A stretch of 50,966 nucleotides of DNA, counting the filler, from Stramenopiles sp. TOSAG23-3 (Eukaryota), in NCBI GenBank assembly GCA_900128585.1. It is 4 parts of 4 records of this genome, joined end to end, with 100 filler letters (N's around TTAATTAATTAA, not from the genome) between each part and the next. Parts side by side here need not be neighbours in the genome. Positions count along the whole stretch, not along the records: positions 23,591 to 46,747 come from LT642317.1; 3 more parts are not named here. One strand, written 5' to 3'. The position numbers were made by a program, and so were the translations under genes. Below the pieces are notes generated by a model. The model did no database searches. It was given only the letters and a program-made list of their open reading frames with translations, and was not told the DNA's origin. Below are positions 13,455-48,957 of this stretch, piece by piece (within the stretch, counting starts at the first letter, position 1; each line of letters begins with the position of its first letter).

Positions 13455-14751
13455 TTGTAAACGCTAAGTCCTGTGGGCTGGGGGTAAACGTATTAAATAC
13501 AATAATTATAATCCACAACCTACTTCCTTGGGAGCGTTTGTTCGTTTTAAAACCTTTCAACGTGTACGTTCATTAATTCTTCTCTGATCTTTTCTATGAT
13601 GATGAGGAGTTTCTTTGTGTAAAATAATAATAGAATAGAAAAAAAAGGAAGAAGAAAGAGATGGATGATGATGATGCCATGATGATTTTATTTTTTTGAT
13701 TCTTTTGTTGTTGTGTGTTCTTGTTGTTGGGTCGCCTATTTTTTATTCGTTGTTGATGTGTCATGTAATTAATACTAATATTTATTACCTTGAATAATAA
13801 TAATATAATAAAATAATAAAATTACTCAAAGTATGGTACGGTAGTGTGACTACGATTCCTTCCGGCTAATTAGACTAAGGAAGCGTAGGAGTTATTACGA
13901 TGCCAAGGCTCCAAAACAGGACGACTCCAAGCAAAAGCAAAAAAAGAATGATGTATTTTTATTTATTGGATTTATGCTCTGTGTATTATGTAGTTATGGA
14001 TTATATTCTAAAATAATATACAGTTTCTTCTTCTTCATTTTAATTATTTTTTCAATTCATTTCTCCTCCTGCTGAGGTCTGAGGCTAGACTACGAGTCCT
14101 CGTATACTCGTATACGAGTATCAGTTTCGGATTTTACTACAGCTCTCTCTCTCTCTTCTTGGACGACTCCTCGTCTCCTCGTACTCGTACTGGTAGTTAT
14201 AAGAAATAAGAAGAGGAGGAGATATATTATTATTATTAGTCTAGTAAGTCTATTATAATTATTCGTCTAAATTATAATACCTGCAGCACATTATTTTTAT
14301 AATGTACCGTAGCAGGGCAACAGAAGGGGAATTTTATGAAAACCACAAAGTAAAAAGAAGAGAAGAAGGTTTCATTTTTTTTTGTTGCATTTTTTTGTTG
14401 CATTTTTTTTTTATTATAATAATAATAATAATAGATCTATTATTAGATCTACGTAGTCGACTACTGCTGTCTTAATATTATTATTTATTATTATTTTTTC
14501 TTCTTCTTTTTTTTTGAAAAGAACAAGCAATGAAAACATTTAAATAATACGAATGCATTTCGTGATTATAATCGGATCACTCTCTCTCCACAATTTCACC
14601 TTTTTGAATTCCCTGTCCTTTCCGTGTCGATTTTCAGCAGTTGCTTGTCGAAGACAGACGATCCAACATCGGCCGATCTGCGCTTGAAAACATAAACGGC
14701 CAACAGAGCAAGAGGTATTTTTCGGTGCCCTTCGACCCCTTTCGTCAGGAA

Positions 14752-17700
14752 ATGGCCGTCAGAGTGTATGCCTCTTTCCTTTTTCTGATTGTAGCGCCAT
14801 TGTTCCTCAACGCTTGTGCGCGACCGTACACATCCTCAAATGGACGCCACTGTCTCCAAGGTCGTGCGCGAAAAATGTGGTCCGACGGTGAATTCTCAGG
14901 GTACGGGGACACGAACCGCACTGAAGCTGTGTGCAAAGCTGAGTGCGACAAGTACCCGGATGAGTGCGCTGGGTTTGACTACTATCGCCCTACCGGATCT
15001 TGCTTGTTTCGCGGGGGCAAACTGCCCGACTTGTACGAAGCGAGCAAGGAGGGCTTGTATAGGCGAGGGAATTGCTCGAATTCAGACGATTTTCACCACG
15101 CACTTCTTCCTGCCGCCATCGGAGGGACCTGTAAAACCATTGGAAAGGTTGTAGAAAGCATCGCCCGGATAAAAAACTTTCCGATAGCAGCCTGCCAACC
15201 CACAGACGGTTCGTTCGTTTTATTTTCTGGTACCGTGTGCAACGTAGATGGGGGGATATTGTGGGATAGTATGACTGTCGTCCAGGACCGCCTGGTTGGA
15301 AAAACCAGCAAAGACTGCACTTTTACAAGGGCTGAGGCAGAAGCAAACGGGAATTTGGATAAGCTGAAATTTTTTGGCCAGTGTGGGGAAGCGCCAGAAG
15401 CCCTGGAAACAGGTGGCCCTTTCCTGTCGGGACTGTCGGGCGGGGGGGGGTTTGGTCCATTCTTTGGTTATGTGGGCCATTATTTGCTCAAGGGTGAAAC
15501 GAAATGCGAAGTTTCGTTAAGCAAACGACAGTGTCGTCTGTTCGCTAAGTTGAGAGGGTTCCAGTTCAGTTTGAGCGGACAAAATTACAATAACCCTGAA
15601 GGGCAAGATGCGAAGTTTCAACAAAACATTCCAACGCTTCCATCCGGGTGCTACATTAACGAAGGAACAGTCGAGTGGAATAGAAACGATAACGCTCACA
15701 CATGCTACAACACGCATTCCGATGACGATAGCAGTACCATCGCGTGTGTCTGCGCTGTCCCCGTGCCCTCAAGTGCATGCTCCCTAAATTGCCCTGAAAC
15801 GAAGTTAGAACAGATCTCTTTAGATGGAGATTGTGGCGATGGGGATCTGGATGATAGCAATCGTCAAGAATTTTTGATTCCGAATACCCCCACTCACCCT
15901 GGTACGTTGGAAGGTGCTCGCGGCATGTGTGCGAAATTCTGCTCAAAGCTAGAGAAACAAAGCTGGGAAAGGGAGAAATGCAAATATTTTTCTGTGAGCT
16001 CGAATTTATTAGATGGTGCAGAGGATAAGTGCTACCAAGAGTTTCTCCCGGATGACTGCCTGTCTTACGAGCAGAACACCAACTCAAAACAAACTTATAA
16101 ATTGGGACCATGGCCCCACTGTTCTGTAAATAGAGCTTTTGGAGGTGTCGCGATTGATTATGAAAGCCAGTGGTCAACCCATGTAGCTACTCCATTTTAC
16201 GAAATTCCGTCCAGTGCGTGGAAACAAGTTACCATAGAATCATCCAACCTAGCGTGCAAACTAATTGGGGGGCACTTGGGCTCTACGGGCGCGTGGAGCA
16301 GCACCACTTCGCTACAATTCAGGTTCCTGGGAAGGAGCCTGGTTCGATGCGACATTACTATACCATACACATTCGTCGGAATAAAAGGCTCAATCGCCGT
16401 GACAAGTGTTGGGGCTTCCAGTGTAGGTGTGGAAGGCCTTTCTGGGTGGGGGATGGCTGCCGCCTACCAGTCGAGCGCAGCAGACGGTATGCCTTGCCCA
16501 TATGGCTATGCTCCAGTTACAAACAACAAAGACTGTGGCCTTGCGGCATCCCAGCTGCAAAAAACGTTTTCCACTGCCGCCGATGATACAAAAATACACG
16601 GCTGTTTCCTGGACACGGATGTTTACTTCAACAGCTTGGGCTTCGATGGGCCCTCTCAAACTGGAAAGCGTGTTTGTGCGAGCATTGCTGTCCCTACACC
16701 ATCGTCCATTTCCCTTGGGAATCATATAAGGCCGATTTTGAGAACGGACAGCACGACCACGATTTCTTCTTCCTCTACGCTTTCCTACGGAACGTCTGAG
16801 GGTCTGGGTTCATCGTCAGTTATTCGCATTGAAACTTCCCAGAGTACTGGCAGTGCTAATGATTTTGACGTAACGGTAAATTTAGAAGTATTGGTTCACG
16901 GAGAAAGTGGTGGTGAGCTGCCTTCTCCCCGTCACTCTCACTCACTGTTCATAGACAACGACTTTGAGAGAAACGAAATCCATGATCAAAAGCCTATTGT
17001 ATACATGTATGGTGGACGGCAAGGGAACGCCATCAGTGGCGACCTTTACGCAGTAAATGTTAGTAGCATGGCATGGACACGGCCCACCGTAGTGGACAAT
17101 GGGCAGCAACCAGGCCCTACTTACGGCCATCGCGTTATTGGTTACAAAAACTCGATGATTTCCTTCGGAGGATGTTGCCACGACAAGCAAGCACACAATG
17201 AGGTTTATTCGTTAGACCTGGACTCGATGACTTGGACCCGATTGACCGTTGGTGGATCAGCTCCCGACCCCCGAATGTACCACTCGTTCGTTAGGTGGGA
17301 AGATTCGGCGTACGTGTTCGGGGGGGTCGTTGGCTCGAATCCCAAATTAGTAGCGGCTGCTCCTTGTGCACGCCATGGTAAACGAATGAACATAATTAAA
17401 GCAGCAACAATCCCGACCTCTCCCTCTGTACTATTACCGTTTGTTGTGGACAACAAAGAGCCGACCCGCACTGCACTAACGTATGAAACGTGGATACGAA
17501 CGCCTGAAACGTTTCTCTCTTCCGCCGCGCTTGAAATAATTGGGGGTAATAGCAATAACCCTGATCACGGGTGGTACCTTAAAACAGATGCATCTTGCGG
17601 CGGTGGTTTTTGTCAATATTTAGGACAAAGTAACTTTTTTGGGTCTACTCCTGTCGACGAAGGCGTTTGGTACCACCTCGCTGTTACGATGTCCGAAGGA

Positions 17701-20700
17701 TTTGAAGTTACTTACTACCTTAATGGACAAATAGACGCATCAAAAAATCTTGCGCCTGACTTTTGCATACATCAGACGTATGTTCTTGCTCCTACCAGTT
17801 ACCCCTGCCCCGACGGGTACGTGCAGGTGAGTGATAAGGATGTGTGCAACAATGCTGCGGGTGAACTCCTGCCTGGCCAATTCAATGGGGTTCTCTCCAA
17901 CATATTAGATCACGTCGCGGGGTGCATCACGTACTTAGACGGGTCTACAAAGAAGATAATGTTCAATGAGCCGACAGAACCAGGAGGCACCGGTGGTGAG
18001 AAAGTGTGCGAGCCAAAACCTTACAGAACTGTCGAAAATGGGAATCCTTGCCCGCACGGTTACAAACAAGAGGACGATCTGGATAAGTGCAAGGTCGCCT
18101 GTGGCGAACTTTCGTCTGGACCTTGCACGTTCTCGGAAACATTCACCCACGATCACCACCCTGGTTGTATCGTTGATAGCACCGATGCCGTACAGTTTAA
18201 CCTGGGTGGGACGAATCTTCCTACAACACAGGGCAAAAGAATTTGCAAGCCCTGCATAGCAAATTTTGTGCCTTCCCTCGGAGATAGGATCGCGCAGGGC
18301 ATTCCAGGTGGTCGGCTTTACAATTTTAGATTATGGAAGCGAGCCCTAACCCAGGCGGAAATACGGAGAAACAGCATGTCGCGGTCTTTTGAGATAATAG
18401 CCCCGCCGTATGGCCCCATCGTTTGGCTTCCATTTCACGACAACGTCCTGGAGGTTATCAACAATCAGGCAATCACGTATACTGGAAATGCTGTTGCGAT
18501 TGGGACGATCGACGTGGGGGCCCTCTCTGAGCGAAGTTTAAAGGCACTCATCGACGTGTTCGATGATTCGTCTCTAGATTGCACGATTTCGTGCGTGGAC
18601 GACGCTCTGTGTTTTGATGCGTTTCCATGGAAAACTGGCAAGATGACTTGGGGGCAATTTAAGACCGAGGCTTCAAATCGCGAAGGCCGGCTGCCTACAT
18701 TGAAAGAGGGGAGGTCTTTGAGTGCAGACGATCCTCTATTGTCCGACATTTGGATTGCTGTCCAAAATCACGCTGCCCCAGGGGGAAAGGACTGGATGCA
18801 GCTTTCGGTCCGAAACAGTAGATTTCAACATGGGGTGTCCTATTTTGAAACATTTGGATCTTACCCGTCTTGGGGAGACGACTCCAAGGCGGTTTTTACT
18901 CCCAGAAGCAAATATTTTGCCTTCGTTCCTGTGAACGAAAACAAAAACATGCAGAATTTGTTCAGGCTGGACCTTCAAAATTACAAATGGAAGCCCAGCC
19001 CGTTCGCCGAAAATATTCCCCCTTCGCCCATTCAAAGCATCGTGAGCCGTGTCCTCACCTTGTCTAACGTGGCAAAATACGGGGCAGGGGATGTAGTCGT
19101 TGTTTCCTTGCAATACGAACCACCTGCGGACTCTACGTGTGAAGCGGAGTTTGGTGGAGAAAACAAGAACGGTATGTTTACTATTTTGAAGGTAGACGGG
19201 AGCACCAATACGATAGAGTTGAGCGAAAGTCTGACTGATATGGACAGCTCGGGCCATGTCAACGATGGGTGCAGCTTGTCCCGGCTGAATGTAGTAAAGC
19301 CAAGAAATATCCCTTTCAAAGCCATTGTAAACATTGTCGACAAAGCAATATTTATAGCGTCTGCCACAGGCTACAATGTTGGTGACCGCGTGACTATTGG
19401 GTACCAACTCGATCTGCAGTCGCGGAAATGCCAAGCAGTGGGATCCTACACAGTTTCAAAAGTAGACAGTAGCAGTAGCCCGGCAACCCTAACAGTCGAG
19501 GAGACGATCGCTGGTGGAGACTTTGATAATAGTAATAACACAAACGTGAACAACGGGTGCCGCCTGGGGCGATATGTTCCTGTAAAACTATTGCAGTGGA
19601 CAGAAGTATCCATAAGCGACGAGTTTAAACCGTCCCCTCGGCACGGGCACTCTGCTGTTGTGAATCATGGTACTATGTACGTTTTTGGAGGCTACGATGG
19701 AAAACAGTACTTGAACGATGTCCAAACCATTGATTTAGAAGCTGTGGCTAACCCTAATGTTATTCAAAACAAATGGAGAGCAGGGGTGTCTCGTCAAGTA
19801 TCTGGGAGATTCCTTTACCTGCGTTCAACCAAGAACACATCATTGACCGTTTCAGAAATCCAAGTGATCAATTACTACGGCGAAAACATAGCGGTAGGAG
19901 TTTCTTGCAATGAGGGTGTTGACTGCTTGTTACATGGTAGTGGAACCGGAGCCCAAACTCCAAACCCAAGCAACAAGATAAAAGATGGTGACATTCCTTC
20001 AAGAGTCCACTCCGCGGGCGCGGGGGGGTTCAAAGCGTACAGCTTGAAAACGAGCAGTGCAGGAAATACAAACGATGATAATTGGCTTCGAATAGAATTT
20101 CTAAACAAATTCACAGACTCATTGATTCACAAAATAAAGATTTGGACCAGCAGTGACCTCGCTGAAAAAACCCAGCTGTTGAATGCGAGGCTGTACATAA
20201 CGGATGAGGCCATGACAACGTACGGAGACCCGTCGACGTATTCTTTAAAGTGGGTACTAAATGGAACAAATTATCAGGAATACGTTGTCGGCGGCAATCT
20301 TGGGAATCCCAGGGACCAATTTGAGCACGTGTGTGCAAGTAGAAAGGCCGATTCGGACTGCACCGTTTTGTCTGCTGCTCCAAACAGTTTTTACAGACGC
20401 CTGGACACGGCAATGGAAGATTGCTTGAGCTTGCCAAGCAATGAAAGTGCTCTTGTATGCAATGCGATTCTTGAGGAGAAATTAAACGACTTTCCCCAGT
20501 TTAAACACCAATTTTCGTTTCTTCACTGTCCCCAAGTCCCCGCTTGCAACGGAGCCTACGACGCTAGCGGGAAGTCGCTGTTTTGGCTGTTGAGAGCTCG
20601 TCAAGAACCATTACCCCGGAGTAACCATTCTGCGGTGATCCAGAACGGGGCGATGTATGTTTTTGGTGGCTGGAACGGCGCCAATATATTTGACGATACA

Positions 20701-23025
20701 TGGATATTTGATACTTCCTCCCATAAGTGGAGCGAGATTACGTCCATTCCTAAGCGTCCATCTCCGCGATTTGCGCATGCATCAATATTACTGTTCGGGC
20801 GCATGGTCACATTTGGTGGGTTGAGTAGCCCGCAGGATCCAGATTTGTTTGCCGACACCAATAGCCTGTGCACATCTACTCACAGATGTTCGTTAGCAAG
20901 CAGCATCGTCTCCGATCCCCCGGGGAATGAGAGAATTGGCATGTATTACGTCGACGAAGGATCGCTCTGTTGGCCAACCAAACTAAATCCGAACAATTTT
21001 TGGACGGGCGTTCCTGCTGCGTGGAAGGGTCGCGTAGCTCTCTGGAATAAGAAAAAGGAAATGGGTCCCTCAAAGCAGTTTACAATAGTGCCAAAGCAAG
21101 CCTCGATCGTCGGTGTAATCTCCTCACAAGAAGCATCTAAAGCAGGGTTTGACTTCACCGATGACAATTTTAACAGTGACAATGAATTGTATTATCATCA
21201 CCGACACGTTGACAACACGCTTTCGTCTATTTACGGAGAAACGACACAATTTTGGAAAGAAAAAGACAACAACGAGTACTCTGTCACCCTAAGTTTTCAA
21301 GGGCGGAACATTCGCGGCTACAAGAACACGGCGGTCCATGCTCCCGTTGAATACTATTATGGCAGGATAGAGGGAAATATCGGCAAACTGGCCCTTGCAG
21401 GTAATGGTTTGTACGACTTGCTTCTTTCGCAAGATGGGACAGAAATCAAGTTAACAAAAGATAGTACTACAATAACATGGGAGAAATACGAAGGCGAAAG
21501 CTTTAGCGATCAAAAAAAATGGGTCGAATCAACCATTACTACTTTAAAGCATGACAACCTTGAAGATAGCGCAGGAGTCGCCGTAAAGGTGTATACGTCG
21601 CGCGTGCTGGCAGGAGTGCCGGTCGTCCTTCGAACGAGGGAATCTTGGAAGGGAACGGTTTCGATCGAACCATTACCCGTCCACCATGCATCTGCTTGCA
21701 ACGAATGTGTAGAAACAAATGATATTCACCAAATGCGCCTCTACTCGACTTCGGGATGTGAGGCCAACTGCGTTGGCTGCACTAGTCACGAAACGTGTAT
21801 TGTCTGCCGGGAAGAATTCTATCTAATAAATGGAAACTGCTTTCCGCGGGACGTTTGCCCGTACGGGACACAACGCCAAGAGGATGGCATGCTACCGGAA
21901 CGTGTGTGCTTAACGTGTGGGAATGGGTTCTCGTATTGCACCGGCTTTGATAGCTACCTTCGCCCAGGGAACAATGAACCCAGTTACAACGATTTTGTCT
22001 CGGGTACACACTTGATGTCCTCTGGAGAAACAGAGTTTCAAGTCTCCCAGGGTCTTGTGCTCGGCCAAGTGAAGATGTTTGCGAATTTTAATGTAACTTT
22101 TCAGTTGCGCCCCGGTACAGCATCGCGGGATATCTGGAGTGAAATCCTGAGATTTTCGAGCAATCCCCACGGAGATTGCTGCGAGTACGGGGACATTCAC
22201 GTAGGCGTCTACTTTGCTCCTTCGTCGCTCGATGTCAAAATTGTAATTGGTAACACGCTGAATGGACACTTCCATGTCATTATAACAGCAGCGGACAGCC
22301 AACTTTCTGCAGATACATGGAGCCGTGTCCAGATCGTCGCAAGGGGCAATAAATATTTCTTGCAGCTGGGATCAAACGAAACTCACATTGTGACAAATAA
22401 CATACACAAACGTCCTGCCCCTTCGAAGATGACAACTGTGTATGCAAGCCGTGATCCAACCTCCCTGTACAGCAGTCCGCCGGGGAATCGCATCAGCAAT
22501 CGTGTCTATGGGTTCTTTTACCCGTTCACGCAGATACCTACCATGGGGACAGCGTTTGCGAAGAAAAAAATTGGGCAGACAGAACTGTACTCTGAATTCA
22601 GAATCAGAATTAAAATAAGGTTTACTGAGGCTACCGTCACTAACACTGACATTGCGTACTTCAGTAGCAGCGATAGTGGGACGGGAGATTACTACCCCAA
22701 AATATATGTTAAAGATAATGAAGTTTGTGCCAAAATGAAGGATAACGCTGCACTTTGTGATGACGCCAACCATCAAAGTCGAAGTCACAATAAAGAAGAA
22801 TGGCATGCTTGGGAATATACCGTGAAAGCGGGCGTGCAAACTCTTCGGGGGGACAGCACGTACAAAACAGCCGATAACTTAGGTGACACTAGCTCCATCG
22901 TAAGCAGGCCCGGCTACGTGTTTGTGGCAGCTGCTTCAAACATTATGCCAAAGGACTTGCAGTATGAACCTTTGAATTATGCCGCTGATGCGAAGATAAA
23001 GGATTTGTGGTACAATCCGTTGTAG
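14752..23025 (+). CDS. Giant secreted multidomain protein (~2,757 aa): PAN/apple, Cys-rich repeats, six Kelch repeats, LamG, C-type-lectin-like, discoidin-like, furin-like and C-terminal lectin-like domains
   Basis: Uninterrupted ORF; the ATG at 14752 gives signal peptide MAVRVYASFLFLIVAPLFLNACA. Kelch PSPRxxH...MYVFGG motifs; LamG WYHLAVT...YLNG...RLWKRALT; furin-like CEANCVGC...CIVC. No TM segment seen. Confidence 0.9.
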   Translation: MAVRVYASFLFLIVAPLFLNACARPYTSSNGRHCLQGRARKMWSDGEFSGYGDTNRTEAVCKAECDKYPDECAGFDYYRPTGSCLFRGGKLPDLYEASKEGLYRRGNCSNSDDFHHALLPAAIGGTCKTIGKVVESIARIKNFPIAACQPTDGSFVLFSGTVCNVDGGILWDSMTVVQDRLVGKTSKDCTFTRAEAEANGNLDKLKFFGQCGEAPEALETGGPFLSGLSGGGGFGPFFGYVGHYLLKGETKCEVSLSKRQCRLFAKLRGFQFSLSGQNYNNPEGQDAKFQQNIPTLPSGCYINEGTVEWNRNDNAHTCYNTHSDDDSSTIACVCAVPVPSSACSLNCPETKLEQISLDGDCGDGDLDDSNRQEFLIPNTPTHPGTLEGARGMCAKFCSKLEKQSWEREKCKYFSVSSNLLDGAEDKCYQEFLPDDCLSYEQNTNSKQTYKLGPWPHCSVNRAFGGVAIDYESQWSTHVATPFYEIPSSAWKQVTIESSNLACKLIGGHLGSTGAWSSTTSLQFRFLGRSLVRCDITIPYTFVGIKGSIAVTSVGASSVGVEGLSGWGMAAAYQSSAADGMPCPYGYAPVTNNKDCGLAASQLQKTFSTAADDTKIHGCFLDTDVYFNSLGFDGPSQTGKRVCASIAVPTPSSISLGNHIRPILRTDSTTTISSSSTLSYGTSEGLGSSSVIRIETSQSTGSANDFDVTVNLEVLVHGESGGELPSPRHSHSLFIDNDFERNEIHDQKPIVYMYGGRQGNAISGDLYAVNVSSMAWTRPTVVDNGQQPGPTYGHRVIGYKNSMISFGGCCHDKQAHNEVYSLDLDSMTWTRLTVGGSAPDPRMYHSFVRWEDSAYVFGGVVGSNPKLVAAAPCARHGKRMNIIKAATIPTSPSVLLPFVVDNKEPTRTALTYETWIRTPETFLSSAALEIIGGNSNNPDHGWYLKTDASCGGGFCQYLGQSNFFGSTPVDEGVWYHLAVTMSEGFEVTYYLNGQIDASKNLAPDFCIHQTYVLAPTSYPCPDGYVQVSDKDVCNNAAGELLPGQFNGVLSNILDHVAGCITYLDGSTKKIMFNEPTEPGGTGGEKVCEPKPYRTVENGNPCPHGYKQEDDLDKCKVACGELSSGPCTFSETFTHDHHPGCIVDSTDAVQFNLGGTNLPTTQGKRICKPCIANFVPSLGDRIAQGIPGGRLYNFRLWKRALTQAEIRRNSMSRSFEIIAPPYGPIVWLPFHDNVLEVINNQAITYTGNAVAIGTIDVGALSERSLKALIDVFDDSSLDCTISCVDDALCFDAFPWKTGKMTWGQFKTEASNREGRLPTLKEGRSLSADDPLLSDIWIAVQNHAAPGGKDWMQLSVRNSRFQHGVSYFETFGSYPSWGDDSKAVFTPRSKYFAFVPVNENKNMQNLFRLDLQNYKWKPSPFAENIPPSPIQSIVSRVLTLSNVAKYGAGDVVVVSLQYEPPADSTCEAEFGGENKNGMFTILKVDGSTNTIELSESLTDMDSSGHVNDGCSLSRLNVVKPRNIPFKAIVNIVDKAIFIASATGYNVGDRVTIGYQLDLQSRKCQAVGSYTVSKVDSSSSPATLTVEETIAGGDFDNSNNTNVNNGCRLGRYVPVKLLQWTEVSISDEFKPSPRHGHSAVVNHGTMYVFGGYDGKQYLNDVQTIDLEAVANPNVIQNKWRAGVSRQVSGRFLYLRSTKNTSLTVSEIQVINYYGENIAVGVSCNEGVDCLLHGSGTGAQTPNPSNKIKDGDIPSRVHSAGAGGFKAYSLKTSSAGNTNDDNWLRIEFLNKFTDSLIHKIKIWTSSDLAEKTQLLNARLYITDEAMTTYGDPSTYSLKWVLNGTNYQEYVVGGNLGNPRDQFEHVCASRKADSDCTVLSAAPNSFYRRLDTAMEDCLSLPSNESALVCNAILEEKLNDFPQFKHQFSFLHCPQVPACNGAYDASGKSLFWLLRARQEPLPRSNHSAVIQNGAMYVFGGWNGANIFDDTWIFDTSSHKWSEITSIPKRPSPRFAHASILLFGRMVTFGGLSSPQDPDLFADTNSLCTSTHRCSLASSIVSDPPGNERIGMYYVDEGSLCWPTKLNPNNFWTGVPAAWKGRVALWNKKKEMGPSKQFTIVPKQASIVGVISSQEASKAGFDFTDDNFNSDNELYYHHRHVDNTLSSIYGETTQFWKEKDNNEYSVTLSFQGRNIRGYKNTAVHAPVEYYYGRIEGNIGKLALAGNGLYDLLLSQDGTEIKLTKDSTTITWEKYEGESFSDQKKWVESTITTLKHDNLEDSAGVAVKVYTSRVLAGVPVVLRTRESWKGTVSIEPLPVHHASACNECVETNDIHQMRLYSTSGCEANCVGCTSHETCIVCREEFYLINGNCFPRDVCPYGTQRQEDGMLPERVCLTCGNGFSYCTGFDSYLRPGNNEPSYNDFVSGTHLMSSGETEFQVSQGLVLGQVKMFANFNVTFQLRPGTASRDIWSEILRFSSNPHGDCCEYGDIHVGVYFAPSSLDVKIVIGNTLNGHFHVIITAADSQLSADTWSRVQIVARGNKYFLQLGSNETHIVTNNIHKRPAPSKMTTVYASRDPTSLYSSPPGNRISNRVYGFFYPFTQIPTMGTAFAKKKIGQTELYSEFRIRIKIRFTEATVTNTDIAYFSSSDSGTGDYYPKIYVKDNEVCAKMKDNAALCDDANHQSRSHNKEEWHAWEYTVKAGVQTLRGDSTYKTADNLGDTSSIVSRPGYVFVAAASNIMPKDLQYEPLNYAADAKIKDLWYNPL

Positions 23026-23490: not shown

Positions 23491-23590
23491 NNNNNNNNNN
23501 NNNNNNNNNNNNNNNNNNNNNNNNNNNNNNNNNNTTAATTAATTAANNNNNNNNNNNNNNNNNNNNNNNNNNNNNNNNNNNNNNNNNNNN
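23491..23590. other. Assembly gap with artificial linker
   Basis: 44 N + TTAATTAATTAA (stops in all six frames) + 44 N. Confidence 0.97.
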
Positions 23591-23852
23591 GTATTTGTTT
23601 TGGGCAGACGGAGCACGTACTGTTTAAGTAGACATCCATACCTATATAAACCCATTATTATTAAAAAAAACATTTTTTTAAATATAAATGCTATTCTGAT
23701 GTTATTTAATGGCTGTCACGGTAAGACGGAGGATGCGGAGGAAAAGATTGTTCCATTGAATGAAGTATCCGATTCGGACACAACTGTTTCCGAAGATAGT
23801 TTCGTAAACCTAACACTTTCTTAAAACGAAGCATTTTTAAAGATATTTTTTA

Positions 23853-24447
23853 ACGCTTCGTCTGCATGCACGATGACGGAGTTGACGAAAGCATGCGGGG
23901 GGCGAAGCTCTGGCGCTGCTGCTGCGAAGGATGTTTCAGTCTACCTAACCAACGAGGGCTTGAGGAGTGACTTTGCTTCGAGCGAAGACGTCAAGGATGC
24001 GAACGCGACGGCGGAAGCGGCTATGACTGCGAGCCTTCCTGTGCCCGACGGCGAGTGGCGCGGATTCTATCCCTTTAGCAAGCCGAACCCGCAAGCAAAT
24101 CCAGAATGCTACACGTGGACCAATGGAAAATGGCGGTGTTATCGCGGCGGCTCGGAGGGGTACGGTACTGTTCAGCTCACGATGCAGAACGGCAAGATTG
24201 CGACCTCCAAGTGGAACGAGACGGGCAGCGTGTGCAACTGCGGGCAGTGCGTTATCTGGAGCGACGGTGGATGCTGGGTGCATGTTGACGTGCTCCCCGA
24301 CTTCGACTACCGCATCCACCAGGGCAACAAGTGCAAGTCTTACGCTTCGTCGGCATGCACGATGACGGAGTTTAATAAAGCATGCGGGGGGGAAAGCTCT
24401 GGCGCTGCTGCTGCTGTGAAGGATGTTTCAGTCAACCTAACCAACGA
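23853..24447 (+). repeat. ~100-bp imperfect direct repeats (23853-23955 and 24342-24447) flanking a 386-bp GC-rich insert
   Basis: Both copies read ACGCTTCGTCxGCATGCACGATGACGGAGTT...AAGGATGTTTCAGTCxACCTAACCAACGA. Confidence 0.93.
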
Positions 24448-25243
24448 CACGTTGATTGAAGCGATGATGATTTTTCATTGCGAGGGCGAGGAGGCGTGCG
24501 TTGGCTTGTTTCCGGAGTTGCTGAAGGTGAACAAACTCGAGCTCAATAACAATCACATCGTGGACGTGGCACCACTGGCAACGCTCGTTAATCTCACGAA
24601 GCTCTGGCTCAATAATAATCAAATCGTGGACGTGATACCACTGGCAACGCTCGTTAATCTCAATAATCTCGACCTTTGTTGGAATCGAATCGTGGACGTG
24701 ACACCACTGGCAACGCTCGTAAATCTCACGAAGCTCTGGCTCAATAATAATAAAATCGTGGACGTCGCCCCACTGGCAACGCTTGTTAATCTTACAGAGC
24801 TCCAACTCGTAGGTAATCAAATCGTGGACGTGACACCACTGGCAACGCTCGTTAATCTCACGTATCTCGAACTTTGTAATAATAAAATCGTGGACGTGGC
24901 ACCACTGGCAGAGCTCGTTAATCTCACGGTGCTCTTGCTCAATGGAAATCAAATCGTGGACGTGGCACCATTGGCAGGGCTCGTTAATCTCAAGGAGCTC
25001 CACCTCGACAGAAATCCAATCGTGGACACGAGCCCCCTTCGTTCACTACCAAAAAGCACGAAGATTACAGGTGTTGTTGTGCGTTGTCGTTGTTGTGGTT
25101 GTTTGTGCGATCCTTGTACTCCCCAAAAAATGATCTGCTGGGTGGCGATTGGTGTCGGTGGTTCTGCGATTTGGGCTGCAGCTTTTTTTGCAGGCTATTT
25201 TTTCGTTTGTTTTTTTTTTGCATTTTGTTGGATCGCTCCGTAA
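23873..25243 (+). CDS. Internalin/SDS22-type LRR protein (8 x 22-aa repeats) with an inserted N-terminal Cys/Trp domain and a Cys-rich C-terminal TM anchor; start uncertain
   Basis: Repeats of LxxLxLxxNxIVDVxPLAxLVN; tail RCRCCGCLCDPC plus a hydrophobic segment. An in-frame upstream leader from ATG 23699 is cut by TAA at 23822. Confidence 0.82.
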   Translation: MTELTKACGGRSSGAAAAKDVSVYLTNEGLRSDFASSEDVKDANATAEAAMTASLPVPDGEWRGFYPFSKPNPQANPECYTWTNGKWRCYRGGSEGYGTVQLTMQNGKIATSKWNETGSVCNCGQCVIWSDGGCWVHVDVLPDFDYRIHQGNKCKSYASSACTMTEFNKACGGESSGAAAAVKDVSVNLTNDTLIEAMMIFHCEGEEACVGLFPELLKVNKLELNNNHIVDVAPLATLVNLTKLWLNNNQIVDVIPLATLVNLNNLDLCWNRIVDVTPLATLVNLTKLWLNNNKIVDVAPLATLVNLTELQLVGNQIVDVTPLATLVNLTYLELCNNKIVDVAPLAELVNLTVLLLNGNQIVDVAPLAGLVNLKELHLDRNPIVDTSPLRSLPKSTKITGVVVRCRCCGCLCDPCTPQKMICWVAIGVGGSAIWAAAFFAGYFFVCFFFAFCWIAP

Positions 25244-25366
25244 CCAGAGAATACGATGGTAAGTACATAGAGTTATGGTTAGGGTCCAAGTTAGTCTTAC
25301 CCAATCATTTTAGTTAACATTCGGATAGGGTTCTGATTAGGGTTGGTTAATCCCAGGTTCCAAATA

Positions 25367-25597
25367 AAAAAAATATTTTTTTAAATATTAATGCTATTCT
25401 GATGTTAATTAATGGCTGTCACGGGAAGACGGAGGACGCGGAGGAAAAGATTGTTCCATTGAATGAAGTATCCGATTAAGACACAACTGTTTCCCAAGAT
25501 AGTTCAGTAAACCTAACACTTTCTTCAAACGAAGCATTTTTAAAGCCATTTTTTTACGCTTCGTCGGCATGAAAATAATAAAGCATGCGGGGGGGGG
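25367..25597 (+). repeat. Second copy of the ~230-bp LRR leader segment (first copy at ~23663-23902)
   Basis: Colinear near-identity: ATGCTATTCTGATGTTA...GAGGAAAAGATTGTTCCATTGAATGAAGTATCCGAT...GTAAACCTAACACTTTCT...AAAGCATGCGGGGGG. Confidence 0.93.
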
Positions 25598-25638
25598 TTT
25601 GGTCTTTTCTGTTATTCTGTTAGTCAAGAAAATTTAAT

Positions 25639-27137
25639 TTGATATGCCTGATAAGACAAGACATCAGAGTTGCGAAGAGGGAACGACGAAGGGTGGCACG
25701 GCAGGCAGCGGTGGCAACGGGGCGTTGGAGAGCGCCACGAGCGCCACGAGCTCCAAGACCACCACCAGCTCCAAGACCACCTGGTCACCTCTATGGTCAG
25801 AAAATCGTCGACTTGTCACCACGGGTGGCAGGGCTTGTCCATGTCACGGAGCTCCACCTCGAACATAATCAAATCGTGGACGTGACGCCACTGGCAGGGC
25901 TCGTTAATCTCACGTCGCTCCACTTCAATGATAATCAAATCGTGGACGTGTCACCACTTGCAGAGCTCGTTAATCTCACGACGCTCAACCTCCGAAAAAA
26001 TCAAATCGTGGACGTGACGCCACTGGCAAAGCTCGTTAATCTCACGTGGCTCCACCTGCCTTATAATCAAATCGTGGACGTGGGACCACTGGCAGGGCTC
26101 GTTAATCTCACGGAGCTCAACCTCCGTGAAAATCAAATCGTGGACACGAGCCCCCTTCGTTCATTACCAAAAAGCACGAAGATTACAGGTGTTGTTGTTG
26201 TGCATGGTGATGATTGTTGTACCAATGTTAAGAAGCTCAGCTTCTGTAGCAATCATATCGTGAACGTGGCACCACTGGCAGGGCTCGCTCATCTCACGCA
26301 TCTCAACCTCAATACAAATCAAATCGTGGACGTGGGACCATTGGCAGAGCTCGTTAATCTCACCACGCTCGACCTCAGGTCTAATAAAATCGTGGACGTG
26401 GCACCAGTGGCAGGGCTCGTTAATCTCACCACGCTCGACCTCAGGTCTAATAAAATCGTGGACGTGGCGCTGACCCCACTGGCAACGCTCGTCACTGCCT
26501 CGGATATAATCAAATCGCGGACGTGACGCCACTGGCAGGGCTCGTTAATCTCAGGAAGCTCTACCTGCGTAGTGATCAAATCGTGGACGTGGCACCACTG
26601 GCAACGCTCGTTAATCTCACGTATCTGAGCCTCAATGATCAAATCGTCGACGTGGCACCACTGGCAGCGCTCGTTAATCTCAAGTGGCTCTACCTCCAAG
26701 ACAATAAAATCGTGGACGTGACACCACTGGCAGGGCTCGTTAATCTCACGTCGCTCGGACTCAATGCAAATCAAATCAAGGACGTGGCACCACTGGCAGG
26801 GCTCGTTAATCTCACGTCGCTCGGACTCAATGCAAATCAAATCGTGGACGTGGAATCACTGGGAGGGCTTGTTAATCTCCAGAGTCTCACTCTCCAACAT
26901 AATCGAATCGTGGACGTGGCACCACTGGCAGGGCTCGTTAATCTCGAGCAGCTCAGGCTCCGTGGAAATAAAATCCAGGACGTGGCACCACTGGCAGGGC
27001 TCGTTCATCTCGAGCAGCTCGAACTCCATGGAAATCCAATTGTGGACGCGAGACCGCTTTATTCACTACAAAAAAAAGGCACACAGATTACACCAAAGAG
27101 ACTTGTTGAGCGTGGCGGTTGCTGTACCATTGTTTAA
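25639..27137 (+). pseudogene. Second LRR locus (~19 repeats, two fused arrays) ending in CaaX motif GGCCTIV; frameshifted near 26495, no in-frame ATG
   Basis: ORFs 25639-26526 and 26523-27137 carry the same 66-bp units in different frames; a truncated unit (GTCACTGCCTCGGATATAAT) marks the shift. Confidence 0.78.
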
Positions 27138-27156
27138 AGTTTAACCTGGTCCTTTA

Positions 27157-27605
27157 TCAGGAAAATAAATCAACCCTACAGTTTGGACATGTGGAGTTTC
27201 GCTCCAACCAAGGGTCGATGCACGCTTGGTGGAAGCAGTGGTTGACGGTTTCACTACAAGGCAGTCTTCTAAACGAGTCTCCGTTCTTAATGGTTTCCTG
27301 ACAAATGGAACACTCGCCAATGACTCCCTCTGCTTTGTAGACTGGTATGGTATTGACCGGGTTGGGTTGCCGTTGATTGATCCACTATAGCGTTTCTCCG
27401 CCTGGGCTGTCCAAAGTGTGTGTTGCCTCCACGGATTGCATCGATCATGCGCTGGTGAAATTCTCCCATTGCGTCTGGTAACGCCACGGTGTATCTATTA
27501 TTATTTCCTACTTCGGTAAATGTGCTCCGACATCTTTATCAAGTTGTCGTTATCGATGGTACCGTCTTGAATGAGCTTCTCAAACAAAATGTTGACTGGC
27601 TTCAT
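27157..27605 (-). pseudogene. RING-H2 (C3H2C3) E3-ligase-like gene, ~148 aa, with two +1 frameshifts
   Basis: Manual translation: MKPVNILFEKLIQDG...IYRS / GNNNRYTVALPDAMGEF...RRRNAIVDQSTATQ / PVNTIPVYKAEGVIGECSICQETIKNGDSFRRLPCSETVNHCFHQACIDPWLERNSTCPNCRVDLFS*. Extra bases lie near 27510 and 27360. Confidence 0.85.
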
Positions 27606-28046
27606 TTATGTAATTTAACTACTAATTTATAGTACAATGATCTGCTTCTACTGGCCAGTATTCCTTCTACAACATTTTAAGTTTGGTTTGATGCTGTACT
27701 TATATATCATTATAATATATTTATGAAGTATGATGTACTCCTCCCCGCCCCCGCCCCTGCGCACCAACTTATTATGATATTACCAAGTATTATCAAAGAA
27801 GAAGAAGGAAGATAGAAGAAGGAGGAATAATTATTATTATTAAAAAAAAAAAAATTATTATTATTTTTTGAGCTTGTATATAATAATATAACTACATTTA
27901 AAAAAATAGACAATATTATTTATAACTCTAAATTATTTGTATACTTATACTTTAAAGTTGAAAAGAGAAAAAGAAGGAAAAGGCAACTGATTTGCAGTAA
28001 CTCAGACGTATCGAGGCCCCCATTGTTTACATGCATCTGAAATAAA

Positions 28047-46747: not shown

Positions 46748-46847
46748 NNNNNNNNNNNNNNNNNNNNNNNNNNNNNNNNNNNNNNNNNNNNTTAATTAAT
46801 TAANNNNNNNNNNNNNNNNNNNNNNNNNNNNNNNNNNNNNNNNNNNN
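46748..46847. other. Assembly gap with artificial linker
   Basis: 44 N + TTAATTAATTAA + 44 N. Confidence 0.97.
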
Positions 46848-48857: not shown

Positions 48858-48957
48858 NNNNNNNNNNNNNNNNNNNNNNNNNNNNNNNNNNNNNNNNNNN
48901 NTTAATTAATTAANNNNNNNNNNNNNNNNNNNNNNNNNNNNNNNNNNNNNNNNNNNN
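48858..48957. other. Assembly gap with artificial linker
   Basis: 44 N + TTAATTAATTAA + 44 N. Confidence 0.97.

Follow-up and report, generated by a model that had tools for sequence, protein, structure and literature searches.

A stretch of 50,966 nucleotides from the genome of Stramenopiles sp. TOSAG23-3 (assembly GCA_900128585.1; hereafter the window, along which all positions are counted) contains three arrays of a 66-bp unit encoding leucine-rich repeats (LRRs). These arrays probably form part of a tandem cluster of a small, lineage-restricted LRR family, in which exchange of units in the germline keeps the DNA framework of the repeats uniform while their surface codons diversify. The codon pattern itself, differences in unit copy number, mosaic units and a stable order of the variable cassettes between near-identical genomes are direct observations. 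An earlier note, made from the sequence alone, had proposed for the same arrays a shuffling of specificity cassettes resembling that of lamprey variable lymphocyte receptors (VLRs) or the repeats of transcription activator-like effectors (TALEs).

The units are marked by a 12-nt core, ATCGTGGACGTG, which occurs 27 times with 0-2 mismatches from 24557 to 27039. The step from core to core is 66 nt, save for 69 nt (25804 to 25873), 59 nt (26455 to 26514) and 63 nt (26580 to 26643), and Tandem Repeats Finder reports arrays of period 66/132/198 with scores of 395-653. All units translate as LxxLxLxxNxIVDVxPLAxLVN. The open reading frames (ORFs) of the window match Pfam LRR_4 with E = 1.8e-33 to 7.4e-44, LRR_8 being also called. 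Core counts and translation thus agree with the repeat arrays described in the earlier note, giving 27 in-register 66-bp units (8 + 6 + 13). The recurring variants that it had listed were found as well: TKLWLNNN occurs at 24593 and again, non-adjacently, at 24725, and adjacent twins are present at 26359/26425 and 26745/26811. In the list below, gene A is the gene that carries the first array, the C-cap is a conserved block that closes the arrays, and L012 is a metagenome contig, one of 72 loci returned by a scan of metagenome contigs with the family alignment.

24527-25054, + strand: array A, 8 units of 66 bp, delimited by core spacing and translation.
24989-25054, + strand: last unit of array A, the C-cap unit NPIVDTSPLRSLPK.
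25774-26172, + strand: array B, 6 units, the first degenerate, the last a C-cap unit near-identical to that of gene A.
26227-27074, + strand: array C, 13 units, with an irregular unit at 26425-26549 and a unit at 26613 that is one codon short.
26745-26876, + strand: twin TSLGLNANQ units, present as a single copy in L012, which is a 66-nt in-register difference in copy number.

Three antisense ORFs run through the arrays on the - strand (24437-25003, 26164-26532 and 26319-26840; 188, 122 and 173 aa). They are most likely by-products, being repeats of one stop-free antisense frame of the unit.

Codon statistics were computed on 18 clean internal units, in which we distinguished 14 framework codons, five x codons (2, 3, 5, 7 and 8) and three semi-variable codons (10, 15 and 19). 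The framework codons are near-invariant, silent sites included, with a mean third-position diversity of 0.075. Three framework Leu positions are encoded by CTC in 16/18, 18/18 and 13/18 units and the fourth by CTG, and CTC accounts for only 10% of the Leu codons in the neighbouring 2794-aa ORF; framework Val is GTG at codons 12 and 14 and GTT at codon 21. This position-specific choice of Leu and Val codons, together with the low use of CTC in the neighbour, rules out codon bias as the source of framework conservation. It points to identity by descent or homogenisation of the units. Conservation of the framework at synonymous sites, as the earlier note had it, is therefore confirmed in the 18 units.

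The five surface codons are close to saturation. Codons 3, 5, 7 and 8 differ by 1.8-2.05 nt per pair of units, versus 2.23 for random codon pairs of the neighbouring gene. The previous description of five codons differing in almost every unit applies to these four, but not to codon 2, which is less variable and encodes Thr in 13/18 units. A per-codon comparison, which had been suggested as a check of the pattern, was made by the Nei-Gojobori method. It gave a proportion of synonymous differences (pS) of 0.104 and of non-synonymous differences (pN) of 0.040 in the framework, pS 0.415 and pN 0.615 (dN, the corrected non-synonymous distance, 1.29) at the x codons, and pS 0.15 and pN 0.40 at the semi-variable codons. 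The expected excess was thus found, x-codon pN being 0.615 versus a framework pS of 0.104. The semi-variable codons vary at their first two bases; the third base is constant in codons 10 and 19, and in codon 15 its diversity is 0.31 versus 0.54 and 0.40 at the first and second bases. This pattern fits amino-acid-changing point substitutions on young units.

The position of the variable residues was deduced from the AlphaFold model of P0001, a family protein returned by our first homolog search. The predicted local distance difference test (pLDDT) score is 88-98 in the LRR part, and the fold of the N-terminal block (N-cap) is below pLDDT 50. Each unit contributes a beta-strand formed by x3-L4-x5 and short helices over positions 15-19. 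In the model, residues x3, x5, x7 and x8 lie on the concave face and the ascending loop, the usual LRR geometry, and the strands x3-L4-x5 bear out the concave-face location that had been assumed for the variable codons. The top fold matches given by Foldseek are InlA (E = 4.9e-21, root mean square deviation 1.5 Å), the Chlorobium tepidum Roco LRR domain and SDS22; phmmer gave 6e-85 to 5il7 and about 1e-63 to InlA. By unit spacing (27 units) and solenoid fold (P0001 model), the repeats belong to the 22-residue internalin/SDS22 class of LRRs.

The window could be compared with L012 and with contigs from X1 and X2, two runs that carry the label of this organism; two RNA runs, X4 and X16, cover parts of the stretch only. 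L012 is collinear with positions 23591-27523, with 24 mismatches in 3861 aligned nt (99.4% identity). It contains five segments that the window lacks: 102 nt after 24513, 18 nt after 25235, 14 nt after 25668, 25 nt after 26493 and 47 nt after 27380. Conversely, 6 nt of the window and a single full 66-nt unit, a TSLGLNANQ twin, are absent from L012. All five segments missing from the window are coding, and without them three ORFs are broken or shortened. X1 and X2 contigs include the 18-nt and 14-nt segments and also hold extra sequence at 24513/24514; an environmental contig at this last site starts with the codons for a missing QYG..IIKK stretch. Seen in the window sequence only, the frameshifts most likely stem from errors of assembly, the witness for the 25-nt site being L012.

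The earlier note had seen in the frameshifted locus a possible donor reservoir of cassettes. The frameshift in array C does exist in the window, but it matches the 25-nt segment missing relative to L012, where arrays B and C form an intact ORF of 488 aa and gene A one of 496 aa, and three of the five missing segments are present in X1 and X2 contigs. Because the genes of L012 are intact and the window merely lacks short segments, we see no pseudogene donor reservoir here. The gene models are as follows.

23491-23590: assembly gap (two N runs); X1 and X2 join a family C-terminal end, 39 nt and position 23600.
23662-23868, + strand: 5' flank of gene A, duplicated at 25365-25571 (192/207 identical).
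23873-25243, + strand: gene A, a 456-aa ORF in the window, intact with 496 aa in L012 (L012:2449-3939), matching Pfam LRR_4/LRR_8; N-terminal extension with a duplicated start region, N-cap, 8 LRR units, C-cap, Cys-rich stretch and hydrophobic tail anchor.
25365-25571, + strand: second 5'-flank copy, upstream of gene B+C.
25644-27137, + strand: gene B+C, one 488-aa ORF in L012, with its ATG at window position 25644, its stop codon at 27135-27137 and the end GGCCTIV; in the window the frame is lost where 14 nt (after 25668) and 25 nt (after 26493) are absent.
26215-26229, + strand: CCTNV, relic of a CaaX end by direct reading against the GGCCTIV ends, now read through into array C.
27123-27134, + strand: CaaX box CTIV, directly before the stop codon, conserved at family ends.

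A third family gene lies upstream in L012 (1672-2148) and ends with RCRCCTIV. The gap at 23491-23590 would conceal 2 kb or more, including one or more further family genes and an ORF of 548 aa without Pfam match (L012:13-1659). A 263-nt contig of a polyA metatranscriptome is identical to positions 24906-25168, which hints that gene A is expressed.

The N-terminal extension of gene A (23873-24361) contains a second copy of the start region, MTELTKACGG.. versus MTEFNKACGG.., the two enclosing a Cys/Trp-rich segment of about 90 residues. This segment has no Pfam match and is conserved and in frame in L012; the extension was not seen in other family members.

Three proteins of the first homolog search (P0001, P0020 and P0035) and sixteen metagenome loci (L001-L016) have one common architecture. 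A short helical N-cap, NDTLIxALFIFHxEGExACVGMFPQYG..IIKKLVE..KTG..LDNN.AEMV.KELLK, sometimes doubled, is followed by an array of 5 to 13 or more LRR units of 22 residues each, then by a C-cap, N-P/Q-I-V-D-T-x-P-L-R-S-L-P-K-x-T-K-I-x-G-V-V-V. The proteins end either with GGCCTIV, CCTIL or CRCTIV, or with a Cys-rich stretch and a hydrophobic helix a few residues from the C-terminus. The remaining matches of the first homolog search were generic internalin-like LRR proteins, mostly bacterial. The N-cap alone retrieved 5 proteins in a set of 5.8 billion, and its profile 20 of 1.84 billion representatives (E <= 1e-3); the family is narrow, since its N-cap profile matches so few proteins.

CTIV, CTIL or CRCTIV ends, in which a second Cys usually stands before the box, were found in P0001, P0035, L001, L004, L006, L009, L011, L012 (two genes), L015 and L016. 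A CaaX box consists of a Cys, two mostly aliphatic residues and a residue X, a definition quoted in PMC2843621, and the contacts it makes with its enzymes have been described (PMC9141697). Positions 27123-27137 encode such a box, CTIV and stop, with the Cys at -4 and at the very C-terminus. The CTIV/CTIL box is probably used, because it is conserved across divergent members. No hydrophobic N-terminus or signal peptide was found among the family proteins, whose N-termini are hydrophilic. Because they lack a signal peptide and end with a CaaX box or a tail anchor, their LRRs are expected in the cytosol: the LRR solenoid most likely sits, lipid- or tail-anchored, on the cytosolic face of a membrane. 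The term "receptor" used previously is therefore ill suited to proteins whose LRRs probably face the cytosol.

The CCTNV motif between arrays B and C reads as the mark of a fusion between two former gene modules, and modules are likewise fused into one ORF in L016. There (L016:2278-4584), three complete modules, each with N-cap, LRR array and C-cap, follow one another in frame, with one stop codon after 3264 and the end CRCTIV. Given the relic in gene B+C and this three-module chain, whole modules are joined and separated over time.

Several observations demonstrate in-register exchange of units. One 66-nt unit is the only repeat-level difference between the window and L012. P0001 and L001 differ by 44 aa, that is two units, and otherwise at 8/380 residues. 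In each of the two pairs of identical 27-nt cassettes (24593/24725 and 26745/26811), 6/39 of the following framework nucleotides differ, versus a mean of 4.8. Over all 190 pairs of units, the distance between cassettes does not correlate with that between frameworks (r = -0.08, Mantel p = 0.71), which makes the units mosaics rather than clonal 66-nt blocks. In the duplicated 5' flanks, used as a neutral measure of how old the tandem gene duplication is, 15/207 positions differ, about as many as in the framework at silent sites, so that units and genes are either young or homogenised.

Silent variants fixed by lineage were found across the loci. Val12 is encoded by GTG in the window, L010, L012, L015 and L016, and by GTC in L001-L009, L011, L013 and L014; Val21 is encoded by GTT in the window, L011, L012, L015 and L016, by a mixture in L010, and by GTC in L001-L009, L013 and L014. 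Most other framework codons are identical across family loci. These variants reflect homogenisation, or separate expansion, across loci. The cassettes behave differently from a common pool that is reshuffled, as the earlier note had imagined: distinct x-strings number 142 among the 182 family units; shuffling would predict 0.87 identical pairs and 44 were counted, nearly all of them linking allelic loci along which they keep their order. Cassettes are newly made and not just reshuffled. The idea that the framework serves as a handle for recombination or gene conversion holds for in-register exchange over evolutionary time, but finds no support as regards somatic shuffling.

L015 is a positional homolog of the window. 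In-register comparison of the two gave differences at 24/252 framework, 45/87 x and 13/54 semi-variable positions, and at 17/253 positions in the 3' flank. The use of this comparison as a test of rates was rejected, in-register units being no closer than random pairs; L015 points to fast renewal of the array rather than giving a rate. For one L015 unit, the cassette that matches best belongs to a different array (14/15 nt, barely more than chance would give in 216 comparisons).

These data suggest the following scheme. In-register unequal crossing-over and gene conversion within the approximately 40-nt invariant framework would duplicate, delete and re-assort units in the germline, and would also hold the framework uniform across units and genes by concerted evolution. 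The x codons (2, 3, 5, 7 and 8) and codons 10, 15 and 19 would gain amino-acid changes much faster than the framework gains silent ones. Selection for new binding specificities would drive these surface changes, the proteins being putative lipid- or tail-anchored binding modules.

The contribution of selection was evaluated on four allelic pairs (window/L012, L003/L005, L009/L014 and L002/L006). Of the 16 array mismatches between the window and L012, the x codons hold 6, each of them non-synonymous, and the semi-variable codons and the framework hold 5 each; the eight variable codons thus take 11/16 of them versus 36% expected (p = 0.009). The x codons differ at 6/390 positions versus 8/2145 in non-LRR DNA and have changed four times faster (Fisher p = 0.013).

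Other results weigh against germline exchange combined with selection on surface codons. In the three remaining pairs, the x codons differ at 1/249 positions versus 70/2474 in non-LRR DNA. Pooling the four pairs gives 7 non-synonymous x-codon changes in about 504 sites versus 4 synonymous framework changes in about 493 sites, which yields a ratio of 1.7; these counts are consistent with 1 and reject the among-unit value of about 11 (p = 0.009). The numbers do not demonstrate strong positive selection acting continuously, and would equally suit episodic selection, or neutral drift of unconstrained positions alongside framework homogenisation. Because the allelic ratio is low, the contrast among units calls for framework homogenisation, bursts of change after duplication, or both. 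In-register units of L015 and the window are no closer than random unit pairs, so the orthology of individual units is not established. Start codons, prenylation and topology are predicted, and one CAAX-bearing LRR protein of Entamoeba has been reported at the cell surface (PMC2843621). Finally, the Logan contigs used here drop rare variants and do not span the arrays, and somatic variants of low frequency could escape them.

The best-surviving alternative is neutral: exposed positions would be unconstrained and drift, conversion and unit turnover would homogenise the framework, and there would be no recognition repertoire. The allelic x-codon rate, near silent and non-coding rates (ratio 1.7, compatible with 1), speaks in its favour, as does the greater conservation of x codons than of flanks in three of the four allelic pairs, and mosaic units and copy-number differences show homogenising exchange at work. 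It would nevertheless require conversion tracts that systematically spare the 27-nt cassettes. It also sits badly with semi-variable codons that change bases 1 and 2 over base 3, two of the three keeping the third base fixed, with an x-codon pN (0.615) above pS (0.415), and with the 4-fold x-codon excess over non-LRR DNA between the window and L012 (p = 0.013). We regard it as doubtful, though deserving serious consideration.

A programmed somatic assembly, VLR-like or other, in which cassettes are copied between arrays and broken arrays serve as donors, appears very improbable. It could explain why an invariant framework flanks variable cassettes and why the window shows apparent frameshifts, and a short X2 contig may seem to show it in action: this contig is five bases off the window, all in x codons of unit 26679 (26682-26702, where LKWLYLQD would become LERLYLEG), and the variant was not seen in X1. 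The contig, however, is flanked by framework only and a paralog explains it equally well; other cassettes with the same framework, such as TDLRLDS, occur as loose ends in X2 and X4. The L012 ORFs are intact where the window is broken, X1 and X2 contain the 14-nt, 18-nt and 102-nt segments, and the ORFs of the window have no LRRNT or LRRCT match in Pfam. The order of cassettes is the same in the window, L012 and the listed X1 and X2 contigs, which match without mismatch, and the VLR-like assembly put forward in the earlier note finds no support there.

Hypermutation directed at the cassette codons, through a diversity-generating retroelement, a deaminase or the like, would account for x codons near saturation next to silent sites that are almost unchanged. 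All three codon positions and all bases vary, however, neither a reverse transcriptase nor a template repeat was found with 23 ORFs of the window and L012 scanned against Pfam, and the mutation rate of the x codons is not elevated in three of the four allelic pairs; this explanation, too, has very little to recommend it. That the arrays are a collapsed or mis-joined repeat is the least credible alternative: the window is short of five L012 segments, three of them contradicted by X1 and X2, and has the gap at 23491-23590, but L012, an independent metagenome assembly, repeats this series of units unchanged apart from one absent unit and 24 mismatches in 3861 nt, unique cassettes find perfect matches in X1 and X2 contigs, and sixteen related loci from other samples have the same architecture, so that the misassembly that the earlier note had considered is not indicated.

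We then return to germline exchange with diversification of surface codons, which can be compared with described systems. A search of the literature returned analogues; no account of the present LRR family was found, supplementary files aside. The closest described mode is that of the repeat domains of fungal NOD-like receptors (NLRs), such as the NWD family of Podospora (het-d/het-e). These repeats show high internal conservation and evolve in concert, both within paralogs and between them; their number is polymorphic, and a few of their surface positions are under positive selection (PMC1805685; PMC4986451). Both systems thus combine a near-identical DNA scaffold with few hypervariable positions, variation in repeat number and exchange between paralogs. 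The fungal repeats differ in being WD40, ANK or TPR units placed behind a NACHT/NB-ARC domain and an effector domain, whereas ours are 22-residue LRRs; the authors report no LRR in fungal NLRs (PMC4986451; PMC1805685). The amino-acid identity of our units is below the 85% criterion that Dyrka et al. give there (PMC4986451). No Pfam match to a NACHT/NB-ARC nucleoside triphosphatase (NTPase) was found in the three window ORFs, and the N-cap is a private family.

Among protists, the LRR-ROCO genes of brown algae (Ectocarpus type) constitute another stramenopile LRR family with shuffling of repeat modules. They show high birth and death rates, diversifying selection on the LRR and shuffling of single repeats, and their authors also raised somatic recombination (PMC3341825). 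These genes have one repeat per exon with phase-conserved introns, exon shuffling and a ROC-COR GTPase module, whereas the present units form a contiguous intronless ORF, and no Roc or COR match was found in the window ORFs with Pfam. The LRR genes of Tetrahymena are also a lineage-specific tandem protist family, with a rapid turnover ascribed to unequal crossing-over (PMC6564038). They consist of 90-bp exons with phase-2 introns and number thousands, in contrast to our intronless 66-bp units in a family that is small as seen (PMC6564038). The BspA-like LRR proteins of Entamoeba histolytica similarly lack a signal peptide and carry a C-terminal CAAX, but their repeats are of the TpLRR/BspA type, another LRR class (PMC2843621).

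The Listeria internalins, the C. tepidum Roco LRR and SDS22 (PDB 2omw, 5il7, 6mky) share with the window proteins the 22-residue class and the fold. The window proteins differ from internalins and Roco proteins in having no signal peptide, Ig-like inter-repeat region, LPXTG/GW anchor or Roc-COR, and they fall outside the internalin family proper, LRR families being the only Pfam families matched in the window ORFs. To our knowledge, there is no framework-versus-surface codon analysis of the Entamoeba BspA-like LRR proteins. Lamprey VLRs and Xanthomonas TALEs also combine a constant repeat scaffold, a few specificity positions and recombination-prone repeat DNA. VLR genes are assembled somatically from incomplete donor cassettes and are closed by Cys-capped LRRNT and LRRCT, and TALE repeats are helical DNA-binding units of 33-35 residues. 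Unlike VLRs, both genes here are intact in L012, with no LRRNT/LRRCT match, and none of the features that define VLRs and TALEs was found in the present LRR family. The family is not a member of the fungal NLR, LRR-ROCO, Tetrahymena, internalin, VLR or TALE groups. What sets it apart is the combination of no NTPase or GTPase domain, intronless units, a private N-cap and a CaaX or tail-anchor end.

The generality of the codon pattern was examined in the 72 loci, of which 37 have at least 5 recognisable units: 15 family loci and 22 unrelated LRR loci. In the family loci, third-position diversity of the framework is 0.15-0.38 and diversity of the x codons 0.36-0.58. In most of the unrelated loci the third positions of the framework are saturated (0.31-0.64); two, L022 and L025, combine third-position diversities of 0.18-0.19 with x diversities of 0.47-0.61 on quite different DNA frameworks. 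In these two arrays (L022:3169-4365 and L025:3127-3780), the framework DNA is 57-62% like that of the window and the invariant-framework, hypervariable-x pattern is again present. Since this pattern recurs in unrelated LRR arrays, it is best read as a general result of unit exchange and surface diversification, and not as a sign of a dedicated diversification machine. This is most likely a known evolutionary route to variation in binding proteins, not an antibody-like rearrangement within the cell.

A role of the LRR family in recognition is plausible by analogy. It is possible, and we say so tentatively, that the family is an LRR recognition repertoire without NLR parts, whose solenoids, predicted to be prenyl- or tail-anchored, would bind variable ligands of viruses, prey or intracellular bacteria. 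Such proteins could act on the cytosolic side of membranes, for instance at the phagosome or the plasma membrane, and would need no attached signalling domain; new specificities would arise from framework-guided exchange of units and selection. Little is known of how free-living marine protists recognise viruses, prey and symbionts, and a family that evolves like known immune and allorecognition repeat receptors offers a concrete candidate.

The genes around the cluster are ordinary eukaryotic, intron-poor genes. They encode a sulfatase, a calpain, PEX11, a giant Kelch/LamG protein, a sideroflexin, an ankyrin protein, a kinase, a serine carboxypeptidase and a RING-H2 protein. The Pfam scan of 23 ORFs from the window and L012 that gave no reverse transcriptase gave no transposase either. 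The RING-H2 gene (about 27150-27620, - strand; L012:5820-6254) is oriented tail to tail with the cluster; L012 carries an intact copy (144 aa, zf-RING_2 3.7e-13), the copy in the window is broken by the missing 47 nt, and this flank is common to L015. The 2794-aa single-exon ORF (14641-23025), directly upstream of the gap, contains Kelch propellers and a concanavalin-like (Laminin_G_3) domain. The window has three gaps of the same shape, 44 N, 12 bases and 44 N, at 23491-23590, 46748-46847 and 48858-48957.

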